Below, piece by piece: positions 26,424 to 32,816 of a DNA stretch of 64,000 bases (the stretch's first letter is position 1; each line of letters opens with the position of its first letter). The stretch is from assembly GCA_963800565.1 (NCBI GenBank), contig CAWDBM010000008.1:308111-372110 (forward strand). The letters are read 5' to 3'. The notes beneath the pieces were generated by a model. It saw only the letters and a list, made by a program, of their open reading frames with translations, was not told where the DNA came from and did not search any database. This stretch comes from an uncultured Acidobacteriaceae bacterium (GTDB lineage Bacteria > Acidobacteriota > Terriglobia > Terriglobales > Acidobacteriaceae). The position numbers and the translations under genes are program-made.

Positions 26424-27697
26424 TGAGCACTGCCCTTGCCATCCCCGGCGTTACTGCCGTCCTGCAGTACTACCTGAACAGCGTTTACAACAACGCCAGT
26501 TCGGTGCTGGGTAGCGTGTCGGTCTCATCAGTCGCTCCGGACATCGTGCAGACCACGCTGGGCAGCAGTTCGAGCGCTGCACCCCAGGTCAATTTGTTTT
26601 TGCATCAGGTCACACCGAATGCGGCCTGGCGCAATGTCGGACTGCCGTCGCTCGCCGCCGACGGAGCGACGGTCTTGAAGAATCCTCCGCTCGGACTCGA
26701 CCTGCATTATCTGCTCACCGCATACGGCTCCGAAAATAATCAGGCGGAAGCGCTGCTTAGCTACGCCGTTTCTTTCCTGCATGAGAATCCCGTCCTGCCG
26801 CGCGGCCAGATCACCGCTGCTCTGGAAGCACTGCCGACGACTTCATTCAACACCGGATTGCTCGCATCCGGGCTGGCGAGCCAGATCGAGATGATCAAAA
26901 TCACCCCCGCCACCTTGGGTCGCGAAGAAATGGCGTGGCTTTGGACTGCATTAAAAGCAGATTACCGGCCCACCTTTCCATTTCAAGTTTCGGTCGTTCT
27001 GATTCGACCGCAGAATCCGGCGGTATCGGCGCTGCCGGTCCTCACGCGCAACATTTCGGCGCAGGCAGGATTGCTTTCCGCGTTTCCAACCCTGACTGAA
27101 GTAAATCCGCCGAAAGGTCAGCCTGCGGCCTGTTTGGGCGATGTAGTCACGATTGACGGCGCCAACCTTACCGGAGCTGCCAGCGTTTTGCTGATCAATT
27201 CCCGGCAGGGAATTCAGCAGATGATCTCCGCGTTGCTCAACGCCGGAGCCACATCTTTTCAGTTCGCAGTTCCCAATCCCAGCCTGCCGCCTCCACAGCC
27301 GAACCCCACCGATCTTCCCGCGGGAATTTATCTTTTGTCGACGCAGGTAACCTCAGGGCCAGACTCTCTGAGCACCAACGGCTTACCTTTAGCGATCGCT
27401 CCGCAAATCAATTCGTCCTGGGCACCAGGCACGCTGGCCTCCGGCACGACCACGGTGACGGTTCCCTGCGCCCCCTACGTGCGTCCCAGCCAGGACGTCT
27501 CGTTGCTGATCGGCGGGCAGCAGGCTTCCGCCGACGCTTTTGCCACTCCCACGAATTCGCCTTCCTTTACCTTCCCGGCGCTGCAACCGACGCCCAAGGT
27601 ACCAGTCCGGCTGCGAGTCGACGGCGTCGACAGCCCGATTATCGATATGACCAAGACTCCGCCGGTGTTGACAGGGCCGGCGGTGCAGGTGACGTGA
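26423..27697 (+). CDS. DUF4255 (Afp16/Pvc16-like) tail terminator/cap protein with C-terminal extension
   Basis: VNLFLHQVTPNAAWRN ... PPLGLDLHYLLTAYG ... matches the DUF4255 pattern. The extra roughly 200 aa has an IPT-like segment (EVNPPKGQPAACLGDVVTIDGANLTG). The TGATG junction makes ATG 26423 the likely start. Confidence 0.85.
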   Translation: MSTALAIPGVTAVLQYYLNSVYNNASSVLGSVSVSSVAPDIVQTTLGSSSSAAPQVNLFLHQVTPNAAWRNVGLPSLAADGATVLKNPPLGLDLHYLLTAYGSENNQAEALLSYAVSFLHENPVLPRGQITAALEALPTTSFNTGLLASGLASQIEMIKITPATLGREEMAWLWTALKADYRPTFPFQVSVVLIRPQNPAVSALPVLTRNISAQAGLLSAFPTLTEVNPPKGQPAACLGDVVTIDGANLTGAASVLLINSRQGIQQMISALLNAGATSFQFAVPNPSLPPPQPNPTDLPAGIYLLSTQVTSGPDSLSTNGLPLAIAPQINSSWAPGTLASGTTTVTVPCAPYVRPSQDVSLLIGGQQASADAFATPTNSPSFTFPALQPTPKVPVRLRVDGVDSPIIDMTKTPPVLTGPAVQVT

Positions 27698-29697
27698 TGG
27701 CGACGCCAGTGACCACAAGAGCGCTAAAGACCGATTGGCTTGAAGAGAACCTGGCTTATCTGGGCGAGGAGTTTGCGCGCCTGCGACGTCAACTTGGATC
27801 GAACGAGGCATCGCCGCCGGCAGACGTCGATAACGCGAACCCGCGAATCCACTCGGAAGAACCGCCGACGGAAGAGCCGCCGACGATTGATCGGCTCACG
27901 AAGATTTTCGGCTTGAGCCAGTTCGAGCGCGATCTTCTGCTGCTCTGCGCCGGCGTTGAAATGGATTCGAAAATGGCTGCCCGGTGCGCCGAAGCGCATG
28001 GCAATCTTCAGAAAACATACGTCACCTTTGGCTTGGCAATGGCTTGTCTCTCCAACCCGCACTGGAGCGCTCTGACTCCCTCGTCTCCCCTGCGTCATTT
28101 TCGTTTGCTGGAATTGGAGGCAGGCCGTAATCTCGCCTCCTCTCCGATGCGTATCGACGAGCGCATTCTTCACTACCTGGCGGGAATAAACCTGGTGGAT
28201 CAGCGTTTGCAATCGCTTCTTGGCGTCACTCCTGATCCTGTGTGGATCGCGGAAGAGCATCGAGCAATCGCCGTCCAGGCAGCACGAATGATTGCGAGTT
28301 ATGCCGAGGCGAATTATGCGCAAGAAGGTTGCTCCCAATACTCTCCGATCGTGCACGTCTGCGGCGACGATCCGGTGGGACACGAAGACGTTGCTGCTCT
28401 AGTGGCGCAAAACCTGAGTCACCGGCTGTTCACGCTCCGTACGGACTCTCTCCCGCCAGTGGGACCGGAGCTCGATCAGATTGCGTCATTATGGGAGCGC
28501 GAATCACTGCTGGTGCCGGCGGCTCTGCTGCTGCAAACCGATGCGACAGGACTCACGCCATCCGCAAGCCACCTGATTGAGCGCCTTCCGGGACTCGTCT
28601 TTCTAAGCAGCCGCGAGCCGGTTCGTTTAAACCGCGCCTTTCTCCGTTTCGACATCAACAAACCGGGGCCGACGGAACAGAAACAGCTTTGGCAAAAAGC
28701 GTTGGGCCCAGCGGCACCGAACTTCAACGGCACGCTCGACGACTTGGCCGAGCAGTTCCGCCTCAGCGCAAGAATGATTTTCTCCACGGGTGCGCTTATG
28801 AGTTCGTCCGCTCTTATGAATTCCGAGACGAGCGAAATTCATTCCGCGGAGTTGTGGAACGCCTGCCGTTCGCTGGCGCGCCCCAAGCTCGAAGATTTGG
28901 CGCAACGAATTGTGCCACGCGCCGGTTGGGACGATCTCGTCCTCCCCGAATTGCAAAAACGCACGCTGCGCCAGATGACCGCACAGCTGCGACATCGCAT
29001 GAAGGTATATGAGACGTGGGGCTTCTCCGCCAAGGGCCGCAGAGGCCTGGGAGTAAGCGCGCTCTTCTGCGGCGAAAGCGGAACCGGCAAGACGCTGGCC
29101 GCCGAGGTGCTCGCCTGCGAACTCGGACTCGATTTATATCGCATCGATCTCTCCGCCGTGGTCAGCAAATACATTGGCGAAACGGAAAAGAATTTGAAGC
29201 AGGTCTTCGACGCGGCCGAGGAGGGCGGCATTCTTCTGCTCTTCGACGAGGCCGATGCGCTCTTTGGCAAGCGCGCTGAAGTCAAAGATAGCCATGACCG
29301 TTACGCCAACATCGAAGTTGGCTACCTGCTGCAGCGCATGGAGGCATACCAGGGATTAGCGATTCTGACCACGAACATGAAGTCGTCGCTGGATCGCGCT
29401 TTTCAGCGACGACTGCGTTTCACCGTGAATTTTCCTTTTCCTGACGCAACACAGCGCGAGGCGATATGGGGCCGGGCATTTCCGGCGTCGACTCCGACCG
29501 AAGGGCTGAATCTGAAAAAGCTCTCGCAACTCAACGTAGCCGGAGGAAACATTCGCAACATCGCATTGAACGCAGCCTTTCTTGCGGCGGAGATGGGAAA
29601 GCCGGTAGCAATGTCGCATCTGGCCGAAGCCGCAAAGCTGGAGGCGCAGAAGATCGAGCGCTCGCTCTCCGAAGCGGAAATCAGGGGTTGGGCATGA
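27697..29697 (+). CDS. AAA+ ATPase (Afp15/Pvc15-like)
   Basis: C-terminal AAA module: Walker A GESGTGKTLAAEVLA, Walker B LLLFDEADALFGKR, and TTNMKSSLDRAFQRR. The roughly 400-aa N-terminal region is unassigned. Confidence 0.92.
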   Translation: MATPVTTRALKTDWLEENLAYLGEEFARLRRQLGSNEASPPADVDNANPRIHSEEPPTEEPPTIDRLTKIFGLSQFERDLLLLCAGVEMDSKMAARCAEAHGNLQKTYVTFGLAMACLSNPHWSALTPSSPLRHFRLLELEAGRNLASSPMRIDERILHYLAGINLVDQRLQSLLGVTPDPVWIAEEHRAIAVQAARMIASYAEANYAQEGCSQYSPIVHVCGDDPVGHEDVAALVAQNLSHRLFTLRTDSLPPVGPELDQIASLWERESLLVPAALLLQTDATGLTPSASHLIERLPGLVFLSSREPVRLNRAFLRFDINKPGPTEQKQLWQKALGPAAPNFNGTLDDLAEQFRLSARMIFSTGALMSSSALMNSETSEIHSAELWNACRSLARPKLEDLAQRIVPRAGWDDLVLPELQKRTLRQMTAQLRHRMKVYETWGFSAKGRRGLGVSALFCGESGTGKTLAAEVLACELGLDLYRIDLSAVVSKYIGETEKNLKQVFDAAEEGGILLLFDEADALFGKRAEVKDSHDRYANIEVGYLLQRMEAYQGLAILTTNMKSSLDRAFQRRLRFTVNFPFPDATQREAIWGRAFPASTPTEGLNLKKLSQLNVAGGNIRNIALNAAFLAAEMGKPVAMSHLAEAAKLEAQKIERSLSEAEIRGWA

Positions 29698-29951
29698 GCC
29701 GCATTCATTTGAACATCGACCGCCTGGTGCTGAACGGACTGGGGCGCGGCGAAGCAGCGGCCCTGGCGGAAACGCTGCGCAAACAGTTGTCCGAAATTCT
29801 CGCCGACCCCGCGACAAGAGCGCAGTGGGCGCGATCGCATCGCACACCGCTTCTGAAGCTGGGACGAATGCCGCTCGAATCCGGGAATGCTGGGGCGAGA
29901 AAATTTGGCGCCCGTATGGCGGGAGCGGTTGGGAAGGGCTTGAAGCCATGA
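29694..29951 (+). CDS. small hypothetical protein (85 aa) coupled to the ATPase and DUF4157 genes
   Basis: ATGA overlaps at both ends (29694-29697 and 29948-29951). Begins MSRIHLNIDRLVLNGLG. Confidence 0.6.
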   Translation: MSRIHLNIDRLVLNGLGRGEAAALAETLRKQLSEILADPATRAQWARSHRTPLLKLGRMPLESGNAGARKFGARMAGAVGKGLKP

Positions 29952-31585
29952 GTAGCGCTACATTCGCGGAGAAAAACTCGGCCGAATCCGCTTCGAAAGC
30001 GAAGGTTGCGGCCAAGACCGCGCCCAGCGATTTGCGCATCGGACCCACGAATGATTCCTTCGAGCAGGAAGCGGATCGCCTAGCCGATCAAGTCATGAGT
30101 AGCGAATCGCCGGCACCGGACTGGTCCGTGACGCGAATGAGTGTCAGCGCACCGCTGCAAAGAAAATGTTCCTGCGGCGGCTCCGGCGGCGCGAGCGGCG
30201 AATGCGACGAGTGCAAGAAGAAAGAAAAAGAAAAACAGACGGTGCAACGAAAGGCGTCGGGTTCAACTGGATACACAGTGGCTCCGCCGATTGTGCATGA
30301 AGTGCTCAATTCTCCCGGCCAACCACTGGACAGGGCAACGCGTGATTTCTTCGAGCCGCGGTTTGGGCACGGCTTCGGGAAGGTGCGGATCCATGTCGGC
30401 GACAAAGCCACCGAATCCTCGCGCTCGGTTCAAGCCCGGGCGTTTACCGTTGGATCGAACATCGTCTTTGGCGGAGGTCAATACCGTCCGCAGAGCCACC
30501 AAGGGCGTTCACTGATCGCCCACGAATTAGCACACACCTTGCAACAGCGTCCGACGGTTGCCAGAAGCATTCTTAAGGACGATTCTTCAAAGACTTCTAC
30601 TTCTGGAACTGGCGGAGTTTCTCCGCTTTTTAATCCTTTCCTTGGCCTACCTCTGGCGATCCCCTCTCTAAACAGCCCGCCTCCGACGCCTGCTCAACTG
30701 GCTGCGCAACTGCATAAGCTGATCGATGGCGCGACGTGGAAGGAGATACGCAAGCGGGTATACCCGAAGGAATCAGCGGCTGGAATCCAGCGCGCAAAAC
30801 AGCGCAAGACGGGTGCTCTGCCGGACCTGACTGGGGTCGGCCGCATCGCGGGCCTTGAGCACTTTGCCGGGGCTGTCCGCAATATCCAACATCACTGGGG
30901 CACTTCGCCGGACAATCGAGTGAAGATGCTGGGCGCGGCGGCGAACGCTGAACTCACCGCCGCGGAGGTTCCAGGATTCCTTGCTCTTCACAAACAGGCA
31001 ATGGAATTTAAGGGGTTCTTCAGGCCGTCTGAATGGAGCTTCACCATCAGCGAAGCGCTGGTGACCGGGGCATCCCTCAGCAACGATGACGCAGCTGGGG
31101 TTGCCAATACCACATTGCATGAGAGTCGCCATGCGGAACAGGACTTTCTGGCAGCGCGGTTTGCGGCCGGCGTAAAGAAGCAGGACGCAACACAGATCGC
31201 GGCCGACCAAAACATCCCAAAAGTGATCGCCGACAAAGCTGTGGCAAAGAAGTTTGACGCCAACACGAGCCCAGCTGTGGCCGCCATGGGCGATAAGATG
31301 TTCACGGCGGGCGTAACCGAACACGCTAAGAACCAAGCCATCAGCAACGACGACGGCCTGAGCGACCTGGCCACCAAGCGCGGCGATGCCGAGACCGCGG
31401 TGAAGAATCTCGAGGCGAGCGCAACTCCCGCCACAATCGCCGAGGCCACCGCCAAGCGGGACGCGCTCAATGCACAGATCACCGTGGTAGAGCAAAAGTA
31501 CACCGCCTATCGCAACATTCCGTACGAAGCCGACGCCCACGAGGTCGGAGATGCCGCCGAACAGGCATTCAAGGGGTGGCCATGA
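29948..31585 (+). CDS. DUF4157-domain protein with distinct HExxH C-terminal domain; second putative eCIS cargo/toxin
   Basis: GQPLDRATRDFFEPRFGHGFGKVRIHVGD...AFTVGSNIVFGG...LIAHELAHTLQQ (HELAH at 30521-30535). C-terminal LHESRHAEQ (HESRH at 31118-31132). Confidence 0.85.
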   Translation: MSSATFAEKNSAESASKAKVAAKTAPSDLRIGPTNDSFEQEADRLADQVMSSESPAPDWSVTRMSVSAPLQRKCSCGGSGGASGECDECKKKEKEKQTVQRKASGSTGYTVAPPIVHEVLNSPGQPLDRATRDFFEPRFGHGFGKVRIHVGDKATESSRSVQARAFTVGSNIVFGGGQYRPQSHQGRSLIAHELAHTLQQRPTVARSILKDDSSKTSTSGTGGVSPLFNPFLGLPLAIPSLNSPPPTPAQLAAQLHKLIDGATWKEIRKRVYPKESAAGIQRAKQRKTGALPDLTGVGRIAGLEHFAGAVRNIQHHWGTSPDNRVKMLGAAANAELTAAEVPGFLALHKQAMEFKGFFRPSEWSFTISEALVTGASLSNDDAAGVANTTLHESRHAEQDFLAARFAAGVKKQDATQIAADQNIPKVIADKAVAKKFDANTSPAVAAMGDKMFTAGVTEHAKNQAISNDDGLSDLATKRGDAETAVKNLEASATPATIAEATAKRDALNAQITVVEQKYTAYRNIPYEADAHEVGDAAEQAFKGWP

Positions 31586-32094
31586 CACGAAGCGGGTGCG
31601 AACGGTGGCCATCTATCACTGCGGGCGCAGATCGGCCCGCGGGGGCGATCATGGCTGGAGAATTTTCGATGATGGAACTGATTCGGGAACTGATCCGCTT
31701 TCTTTCGCAGGATCCTTTGGCGGTCGACGAGGTCACGGCGAGGATTGGGCCGATCGTGCGCGATCCGGGCATCCCTATGCCAATCGAACTGCGACCAGCC
31801 CTAGCGGGTGTGTGCTCGGCGTATCTCACGCGCTACCCAGAGTCGGGCCTTCCCTACGTGCTAACCGTGGAGCCTACGCGGGATGCCGCTCCGACAGTGG
31901 GCGCTTTGCAGGCCGTTTTCGGCGACTATCGCCGCGCGCTGACCGGCCGCGGCATGCCGTACGAGATCGTGTTCTCCACGCCGGCCGAGGGCACGAACTG
32001 GCGCATTGTGCTCATTGCGAGATTGGAGCCCGTCAGCGATCAGATCGAAAGCACATTGGTCACTAGCATCGCGTTGCGGCGGGATCCAACTTAA
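31582..32094 (+). CDS. hypothetical protein downstream of cargo 2 (possible immunity/chaperone)
   Basis: ATGA overlap with the DUF4157 gene stop. No motif recognised. Alternative starts are GTG 31576 and ATG 31651. Confidence 0.5.
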   Translation: MTRSGCERWPSITAGADRPAGAIMAGEFSMMELIRELIRFLSQDPLAVDEVTARIGPIVRDPGIPMPIELRPALAGVCSAYLTRYPESGLPYVLTVEPTRDAAPTVGALQAVFGDYRRALTGRGMPYEIVFSTPAEGTNWRIVLIARLEPVSDQIESTLVTSIALRRDPT

Positions 32095-32153
32095 AGGCCG
32101 TCATTCAGAGGTGCCGTGATCCAAATGATGATTCTAGAGAGAACAGGAAATTC

Positions 32154-32816
32154 ATGAGTTCCTCCCCCATTTCGCCCCGCCTCGTCAAAGGTGGCATCGT
32201 CACCATGGATCCGGACACGACCGCCCTGCAGAGCGTCATCGCGCTGCAATACAACCCAGATACGTTGACGCGCACGCTGCAAATCCAGGCCGTACAAGGC
32301 GCTCAGGATGGCACTCGCGTCGATGCGCTGCGCCTGCGCGGTCCGGCCGTCGAAACCATCAAGTTGGAAGCGGAGCTTGATGCGACCGACCAATTGGAGT
32401 TTCCGAAACAGTATCCGCTAGCGGTGCAGTACGGCCTACAGCCGCAACTGGCGCAACTCGAGATGCTCATCAATCCCACGGTCGAGACGTTGATGTCGGA
32501 CGACAGCATGGCCAACAGCGGCACGCTCGAAATAATCCCGCTGGAACAGCCGCTCACGCTGTTCGTGTGGAGCAAGAGCCGAGTAGTGCCCGTTCGGCTT
32601 ACAGACTTCTCCATCACCGAAGAAGCGTTTGATCCAAACCTGAATCCCATCCGCGCCAAGGTGAGCCTTGGCCTGCGAGTGTTGAATGTCGATGACCTTG
32701 GCTTCTCGCATCCCGGCGGCCGGATGTTCATAAGTTATCTGACTAACAAGGAGCAATTGGCGTCGCAGGCAGCCACGGTCGCGATTTCTGTCCTCGGGCT
32801 CGGAGGACTGCCATGA
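32154..32816 (+). CDS. CIS tube-family protein (tube initiator, Afp5/Afp7 N-domain-like)
   Basis: GGIVTMDP....VIALQYNPDTLTRTLQ resembles the F-x-F-NPE-sl motif of contractile-injection tube/initiator proteins. Positioned immediately 5' of a LysM-like gene and the hub. Confidence 0.65.
   Translation: MSSSPISPRLVKGGIVTMDPDTTALQSVIALQYNPDTLTRTLQIQAVQGAQDGTRVDALRLRGPAVETIKLEAELDATDQLEFPKQYPLAVQYGLQPQLAQLEMLINPTVETLMSDDSMANSGTLEIIPLEQPLTLFVWSKSRVVPVRLTDFSITEEAFDPNLNPIRAKVSLGLRVLNVDDLGFSHPGGRMFISYLTNKEQLASQAATVAISVLGLGGLP

Follow-up and report, generated by a model that had tools for sequence, protein, structure and literature searches.

A probable mid-locus DUF4157 cargo with a presumed zincin-like payload and a strictly linked partner gene in an extracellular contractile injection system of an uncultured Acidobacteriaceae bacterium

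The 64,000-nt stretch analysed here (the window; positions 308,111 to 372,110 of contig CAWDBM010000008.1, assembly GCA_963800565.1, from an uncultured Acidobacteriaceae bacterium) contains a locus for an extracellular contractile injection system (eCIS). Between its AAA+ ATPase gene and its baseplate genes lie a small open reading frame (ORF) of 85 amino acids (aa), the gene of a 545-aa protein with a DUF4157 domain, and a trailing ORF. Sequence comparisons and structure predictions suggest that the 545-aa protein is probably a swappable eCIS cargo, that its C-terminal part is a zincin-like payload, and that the trailing ORF encodes a dedicated inhibitor or immunity partner. The genes are real, the domains of the cargo are clearly delimited and are exchanged as modules, the payload domain and the trailing gene are strictly linked, and the motif residues of the payload are invariant. 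The three ORFs and their overlaps are present as an earlier, sequence-only reading of this DNA had described them, and all have relatives: at least 157 for the C-terminal domain, 101 for the trailing ORF, and homologues in 61 of 64 related loci for the 85-aa ORF. The features on which the argument depends are the following.

20132-22249, + strand: cargo 1, with DUF4157, Tse3_N and M35 aspzincin matches (Pfam); paralogous N-terminal part, different payload
27694-29697, + strand: AAA+ ATPase gene (Afp15/Pvc15/Alg15-like; Pfam AAA E = 3.9e-24, WHD E = 4.5e-18)
29694-29951, + strand: 85-aa ORF, translationally coupled to the AAA+ ATPase gene, onto whose TGA its ATG overlaps
29948-31585, + strand: gene of the 545-aa protein, with an ATGA overlap onto the 85-aa ORF
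29948-30322, + strand: N-terminal region, residues 1-125; polar, low-complexity, presumed loading sequence
30323-30553, + strand: DUF4157 (eCIS_core), residues 126-202; PF13699 E = 7.7e-29
30554-30694, + strand: Ser/Thr/Pro low-complexity linker, residues 203-249; homologue alignments end upstream of about residue 250
30695-31585, + strand: C-terminal domain, residues 250-545 (296 aa), plus the stop codon; zincin-like putative metallopeptidase, presumed toxic payload
31118-31138, + strand: HESRHAE (H391, E392, R394, H395, E397); second HExxH, presumed catalytic
31508-31552, + strand: YRNIPYEADAHEVGD, residues 521-535; conserved C-terminal helix motif
31582-32094, + strand: trailing ORF, 170 aa at longest, with an ATGA overlap onto the 545-aa ORF
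32154-32816, + strand: tube-like baseplate gene (CIS_tube; PF19266 E = 7.3e-8), the 3′ boundary of the cargo island

The C-terminal domain has at least 157 homologues at 50-71% identity; nearly all of these carry it at their extreme C-terminus, and in most it is fused to DUF4157. An exhaustive profile search recovered 1,201 clusters (representatives at 50% identity) with E ≤ 1e-3 and 665 with E ≤ 1e-10. Residues 250-545 gave no match in Pfam (to E ≤ 10), in NCBIfam or in the PDB (phmmer and profile searches). The first HExxH of the 545-aa protein, HELAH at residues 193-197, lies inside DUF4157. The second is encoded by CAT GAG AGT CGC CAT at 31118-31132, which reads HESRH (H391-H395), the position given by the sequence-only reading being exact. 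Conservation was counted on the 120 of 129 cluster representatives that align across the motif. H391, E392, H395, E397 and Y521 were kept in all 120, R394 and E527 in 119 each, D529 in 116 and G534 in 115; in alignment A1, HExRHAE and YRxIPxExDAHEVGDA were invariant. Either E527 or D529 is a candidate for the third metal ligand. H531 is unlikely to be one, since only 74 of the 120 representatives carry it.

An AlphaFold2 model of the domain was obtained with a predicted local distance difference test score (pLDDT) of 96.7 and a predicted template modelling score (pTM) of 0.91. It places, in order, a helix, a three-stranded sheet, a long helix bearing the HExxH (helix 135-164 of the model), a helical elaboration, and a last helix with E527 and D529. 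The remote homology and structure searches called for by the sequence-only reading returned no significant match, Foldseek giving best values of E = 0.7 against the PDB and E = 0.1 against a viral library, but the weak lists were dominated by zincins (IrrE/PprI, M32, BepA/M48, deuterolysin/M35, minigluzincins and SprT-like proteins), with local core matches of 70-80 residues at 2.5-3.7 Å. Sub-threshold matches to PF20573 (DUF6782, putative metallopeptidase) were found for 16 of 32 family members, and one remote member gave a sub-threshold match of the SprT-like type. In our reading these results point to a new family of zincin-like domains with strict selection on the catalytic residues, and the domain is a putative metallopeptidase.

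Across loci the C-terminal domain keeps 44-72% identity, above the values for the sheath, the ATPase and the N-terminal part of its own protein. It is also found behind PG_binding_1, with DUF4157 and PG_binding_1, with DUF4157 and VanY, and in proteins that lack DUF4157. In two remote relatives the domain is internal: P0231 (1,111 aa) has it in the same protein as Ntox46, and P0242 (1,263 aa) has it together with DUF4157 and a sub-threshold EndoU match. Judged by these domain contents, both look like multi-toxin proteins.

Since loci retrieved by means of the domain are no guide to whether it varies, an unbiased survey was made through the tube-like gene (alignment A4). It yielded 80 loci, 64 of which show the ATPase and the tube-like gene. 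In 57 of the 64, one to four DUF4157 genes lie between the ATPase or small ORF and the tube-like gene; mid-locus DUF4157 cargo is the rule in the eCIS lineage of the window. The number ranges from zero to four over the 64 loci, being zero in loci such as L127, L171, L172 and L175, so that the cargo island can be empty. The payloads of Afp and PVC lack DUF4157 and trail their loci, unlike the DUF4157 cargo of the window and of these 57 loci, which lies between the ATPase and the baseplate genes. The sequence-only reading was therefore right that the placement departs from Afp/PVC, but this locus is not exceptional in having it. Among the 64 surveyed loci only one (L138, on the same contig as L004) had the C-terminal domain with its partner, and the idea that the domain is a conserved structural part of the lineage, which the sequence-only reading had raised against itself, was rejected on that count.

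The boundaries of the exchange are visible in L114 (Terriglobales), the closest orthologous locus in the genome collection, whose tube-like protein is 94% identical to that of the window. In blastn comparisons the two loci were 70-76% identical through the ATPase and the small ORF to position 29952, and the similarity resumed exactly at 32154. The variable unit is 29952-32153, which holds the 545-aa protein and the trailing ORF, with the backbone kept on either side; this is the outcome of the comparison of orthologous loci that the sequence-only reading had proposed. The cargo gene at the corresponding position of L114 matches residues 1-205 with 50% identity and is collinear from Met1 onwards; its C-terminal domain is unrelated to that of the window, and no partner gene accompanies it.

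The same layout is seen inside the window. Residues 29-200 of the 545-aa protein aligned with residues 82-251 of cargo 1 at 53% identity (BLASTP, E = 1e-45), and the C-terminal parts of the two proteins were unrelated. The 545-aa protein ceases to resemble cargo 1 and the L114 cargo at about residue 200-219, and both comparisons bear out the shared N-terminal part and swapped C-terminal part that the sequence-only reading had likened to polymorphic toxins. Disorder-promoting residues make up 66% of the N-terminal region (composition count). By analogy with AlgoCIS Cgo1/Cgo2, the N-terminal region common to both cargos is presumed to be a loading signal, and the adjacent AAA+ ATPase, a backbone gene with 46-52% identity among related loci, is presumed to be the cargo loader. 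Its domain content marks the 545-aa protein as a likely member of the DUF4157 class of eCIS cargo.

The pairing of the domain with the trailing ORF was examined in 30 genomic loci fetched through the C-terminal domain, of which 22 close loci have downstream sequence. A homologue of the trailing ORF lay immediately 3′ of the domain in all 22, usually overlapping the upstream stop by 4-13 nt. The sequence-only reading had allowed that this ORF might prove non-coding in orthologues; it is coding, and linked to the domain. The pair was found inside eCIS loci of the window's lineage (L001, L003, L004, L007, L008 and L020), in a Bacteroidota eCIS of another type (L011), where the toxin protein lacks DUF4157, and at orphan sites amid unrelated metabolic genes (L016, L019, L022 and L197); the partner gene is also downstream in L195-L197. 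The effector-domain/partner pair is mobile, occupying the cargo islands of distant eCIS lineages as well as orphan sites.

The trailing-protein family has 101 members, all stand-alone, of 118-237 aa and down to 35% identity. The partner diverges faster than the toxin domain (31-55% identity, versus 44-72%). The 170-aa reading is conserved only from about residue 31 onwards, and the gene as called in the database encodes 141 aa, for which reason the true start may be ATG 31651 or ATG 31669 and not the ATGA at 31582; GGAG at 31656-31659 precedes ATG 31669, where the conserved core (about 141 aa) begins. AlphaFold2 predicted an alpha/beta fold for the trailing protein (pLDDT 90.9). The protein had no match in Pfam, no PDB sequence match, and no Foldseek match to the PDB.

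About 14 of the 101 family members have N-terminal signal peptides, several of them with lipoboxes (e.g. MIGRGAVLMLLGAC-S). This exported or lipoprotein-type subset includes the following.

Proteins P0341, P0342, P0345, P0346, P0308, P0330, P0326 and P0349
L197:8001-8546
L194:6001-6714

Both signal-bearing members that were checked, P0345 and P0330, directly follow DUF4157 proteins of 517-534 aa, a length that fits the cargo proteins of the family. The protein before P0345 (L197, on a 247,040-bp contig) has 534 aa and matches P0087, a member of the C-terminal-domain family. The exported homologue in L194 has no toxin gene within 6 kb. These features suggest that some members of the family protect the cell envelope. 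The trailing protein is probably a cognate inhibitor or immunity protein, a role preferred over that of a loading chaperone because exported and orphan copies fit the former and not a loading factor confined to the cytoplasm.

At L027:10001-10372 a decayed module was found: the toxin domain's last ~64 codons are joined there, in frame, to the partner gene's 3′ half, and this remnant adjoins another DUF4157 gene. In Myxococcales, remote homologues of the domain at about 34% identity (L024:6704-8565, L024:9671-11217 and L025) are followed by ORFs with lipoprotein signals. One of these lipoprotein ORFs aligned end to end with the trailing protein and shares its C-terminal RDP, the alignment not being significant (hhalign E = 0.14).

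In the mechanism that we propose, the adjacent AAA+ ATPase would recognise the polar N-terminal region and feed the 545-aa protein into the tube lumen, with DUF4157 in an accessory role. The payload would consist of the final 296 residues and would be a zinc metallopeptidase from a zincin-like family not described before, its metal bound by H391, H395 and, as the likely third ligand, E527 or D529, with E392 serving as catalytic base. The trailing protein, small and cytoplasmic, would bind and block the peptidase in the producer until loading, and might also shield sister cells.

Several points weigh against this proposal. The C-terminal domain has no significant sequence or fold similarity to characterised peptidases, and its Pfam matches are sub-threshold. 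In AlgoCIS of Algoriphagus machipongonensis, the toxicity of Cgo1 in E. coli was independent of both of its HExxH motifs (PMC8894135), so an intact HExxH motif is no proof of toxicity through proteolysis. The trailing protein of the window lacks a signal peptide and some of its relatives are lipoproteins, which makes its compartment of action ambiguous. In related loci, DUF4157 cargo genes mostly stand without a partner gene, and Geller et al. found few toxin/immunity pairs, most of the eCIS toxins that they tested having no detectable immunity gene (PMC8213781); this kind of system does not, therefore, generally require an immunity protein.

Three other explanations were weighed. The trailing protein might be a cargo-specific chaperone or adaptor that keeps the effector soluble or presents it to the AAA+ loader. 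Its strict pairing with the C-terminal domain would suit a chaperone and an immunity protein alike, its predicted location in the cytoplasm is the site of loading, and type VI secretion offers well-known examples of effector-specific adaptors; Danov et al. also speculate on chaperone functions in eCIS loading (PMC11297309). Yet the ~14 predicted exported or lipoprotein members would be unexpected for a cytoplasmic loading factor, as would an exported homologue that stands without a toxin gene (L194). The pair is confined neither to the neighbourhood of eCIS genes nor to toxin-domain proteins with DUF4157, the position 3′ of the toxin gene is the usual one for immunity genes, and in AlgoCIS loading needs the N-terminal region, as deletion analysis found, and is mediated by Alg15, with no cargo-specific chaperone reported (bioRxiv 10.64898/2026.05.27.728243). 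A chaperone role is thus regarded as unlikely.

It is slightly harder still to assign the C-terminal domain to the producer's own needs, as a peptidase with a housekeeping or accessory function in, for example, wall remodelling, lysis for release or cargo processing, with the trailing protein as its regulator. The PG_binding_1 and VanY domains on some homologues, the muramidase-related Tse3_N of cargo 1 in the same locus, the release of eCIS particles by cell lysis (PMC8213781) and the unusual conservation of the domain across phyla all speak for such a role. The 545-aa protein nevertheless has the N-terminal region and the DUF4157 typical of other cargo, and remote members join the domain to the polymorphic toxin domains Ntox46 and EndoU. 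The domain moreover lies in the variable island and is missing from 63 of the 64 related loci, and an essential assembly or release factor should not be so dispensable. That same absence from orthologous loci, together with HExxH residues invariant in 120 of 120 representatives, leaves hardly any room for the C-terminal region being a structural, non-enzymatic eCIS part, even though it is mostly helical. It is just as hard to believe that the trailing ORF is a chance frame: both strands of this DNA (58-60% GC) have many long spurious ORFs, but this one has 101 homologues down to 35% identity and a confidently predicted fold.

The favoured explanation, a swappable cargo with a peptidase payload and an immunity partner, can be extended, tentatively, to a broader one. 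The domain and the trailing protein might form an undescribed and widespread effector/immunity family (about 1,200 clusters in many bacterial phyla) and be among the few eCIS payloads with a dedicated immunity protein; the effector might be an antibacterial, envelope-acting protease, as suggested by the exported and lipoprotein partners and by the PG_binding_1 and VanY fusions; and the 85-aa ORF might be an unrecognised, near-universal core gene of the lineage that works with the AAA+ loader.

What this would add is a new effector/partner family within a published architecture, DUF4157 cargo with variable C-terminal toxins having been described before (PMC8213781, PMC11297309, PMC8894135), and since the general architecture is already published the gain is incremental. 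eCIS particles are under development as programmable protein-delivery tools, and most of their natural payloads have no known activity. The present payload domain is large, highly conserved and confidently modelled, has an intact catalytic motif and comes with a candidate inhibitor, which makes the pair a tractable system for asking what the substrate of an eCIS metalloprotease is, why a minority of eCIS toxins need immunity while most seem to do without it, and where in the target cell the cargo arrives. Engineering of this eCIS lineage could be guided by the site, between the small ORF and the tube-like gene, at which cargo is cleanly swapped.

Among known systems, the closest likeness in architecture is to AlgoCIS Cgo1 (ALPR1_12695), a cargo that fills the tube lumen (Xu et al. 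2022, PMC8894135). Both proteins are of ~500 aa and have an N-terminal region that is disordered in Cgo1 and rich in disorder-promoting residues in the window protein, a central DUF4157 bearing an HExxH and a C-terminal domain with a second HExxH, and each is encoded in its eCIS cluster alongside another DUF4157 cargo, one with a different C-terminal domain. Loading in AlgoCIS is brought about by the N-terminal region together with Alg15 and does not require DUF4157 (PROCIS preprint, bioRxiv 10.64898/2026.05.27.728243). Homology of the C-terminal domain to that of Cgo1 was considered and rejected by way of a proxy, a 497-aa Cgo1-like protein of Echinicola shivajiensis (L111:17091-18584) chosen through an AlgoCIS-type tube protein 96% identical to Alg1; this proxy gave no hmmsearch match to the domain family and an hhalign probability of 0.4%. 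PDB searches with the baseplate, tube-like and cap proteins returned no AlgoCIS chain. Unlike in the window, no conserved partner gene follows Cgo1 in the paper (PMC8894135) or in the Echinicola loci that were read, and the Echinicola cargo genes lie after the baseplate and fibre genes, whereas that of the window lies between the ATPase and the tube-like gene. The window cargo and Cgo1 appear, from these comparisons, to have the same architecture with different payload families.

DUF4157 is an eCIS core or marker domain that is N-terminal on diverse toxins (Geller et al. 2021, PMC8213781), a picture extended by Danov et al. 2024 (PMC11297309). The 545-aa protein resembles these eCIS-associated toxins (PMC8213781, PMC11297309) in its N-terminal DUF4157, its variable C-terminal toxin domain and its place in or near an eCIS operon. 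Few of them have immunity genes; the window protein differs in having a strictly linked partner, and its C-terminal domain matches no named toxin family. Polymorphic toxins of the Rhs, CDI and LXG types have a conserved trafficking N-terminus, a replaceable C-terminal toxin and a cognate immunity gene immediately downstream. The layout seen here and the decayed remnant in L027 recall such systems; unlike Rhs cages and two-partner or type VII secretion, delivery would here be by loading into a phage-tail-like particle. T6EC12 is a toxic, HExxH metalloprotease-like type VI effector for which modelling suggests that an immunity protein blocks the active site (bioRxiv 10.64898/2026.09.28.754971). 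Compared by description only, it likewise has an HExxH centre in an otherwise unfamiliar scaffold, but it uses another delivery system and has HELSH with D312 and E341 nearby, in contrast to HESRHAE with E527 and D529 about 130 residues downstream. The Afp/PVC payloads (Afp17/18, Pnf and Pdp1) would be similar in combining an N-terminal signal with loading by an AAA+ ATPase, as proposed for the window.

The sequence-only reading had counted the 85-aa ORF, whose product begins MSRIHLNIDRLVLNGLG, as part of the cargo cassette. This assignment was rejected, since a homologue lies directly 3′ of the ATPase in 61 of the 64 loci picked through the tube-like gene and the DNA similarity to L114 runs through the ORF. 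Relatives also stand 3′ of the ATPase in domain-picked loci (L001, L003, L007, L018 and L020). The ORF follows the ATPase whichever cargo gene comes next, and its conservation accordingly marks it as a backbone gene paired with the ATPase and not as cargo. Its product belongs to a family of small proteins (~85-95 aa) with the pattern LHIERLVL ... G.QIA.AVY..IG, found in loci of many bacterial phyla and of one Methanosaeta genome; it had no match in Pfam or NCBIfam, and a PDB sequence search gave only a marginal partial match (E = 0.009). Judging from this distribution, it could be an unrecognised core gene working with the loader. Homologues were located as follows.

L114:6695-6958
L001:7794-8057
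L003:435-692
L007:6435-6722
L018:9096-9380

The archaeal locus, L166 (Methanosaeta sp. PtaU1.Bin112), has the order Pvc16 - AAA+ - small ORF - two DUF4157 genes - tube-like gene, and its tube-like protein is ~60% identical to that of the window.

Around these ORFs the window has the hallmark genes of an eCIS, namely those for sheath, tube, Pvc16_N, AAA+, CIS_tube, LysM, spike and Baseplate_J. The neighbouring features, where a single number gives a single position, are listed here.

18972-20033: sigma-54 activator (Sigma54_activat E = 1.3e-57), directly 5′ of cargo 1 and the sheath operon
22850: sheath
24488: tube
26420: Pvc16_N cap
32813: LysM
33174: weak VgrG-related match
34313: spike
34939: PAAR-sized ORF without a Pfam match
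35678 and 39284: two Baseplate_J proteins
44491: DUF6519 / beta-helix protein

No internal promoter, including any of sigma-70-like type, was found in 27500-32400, and the two terminator-like sites in that interval are no excess over the 5.4 expected by chance. No Rfam families or tRNAs were found anywhere in the window. The position of the sigma-54 activator suggests that the eCIS locus may be under sigma-54-dependent control. The 600-bp gap between cargo 1 and the sheath gene (22250-22849) holds an ORF at 22335-22763 on the + strand (142 aa, TTG start), which might be a partner of cargo 1.

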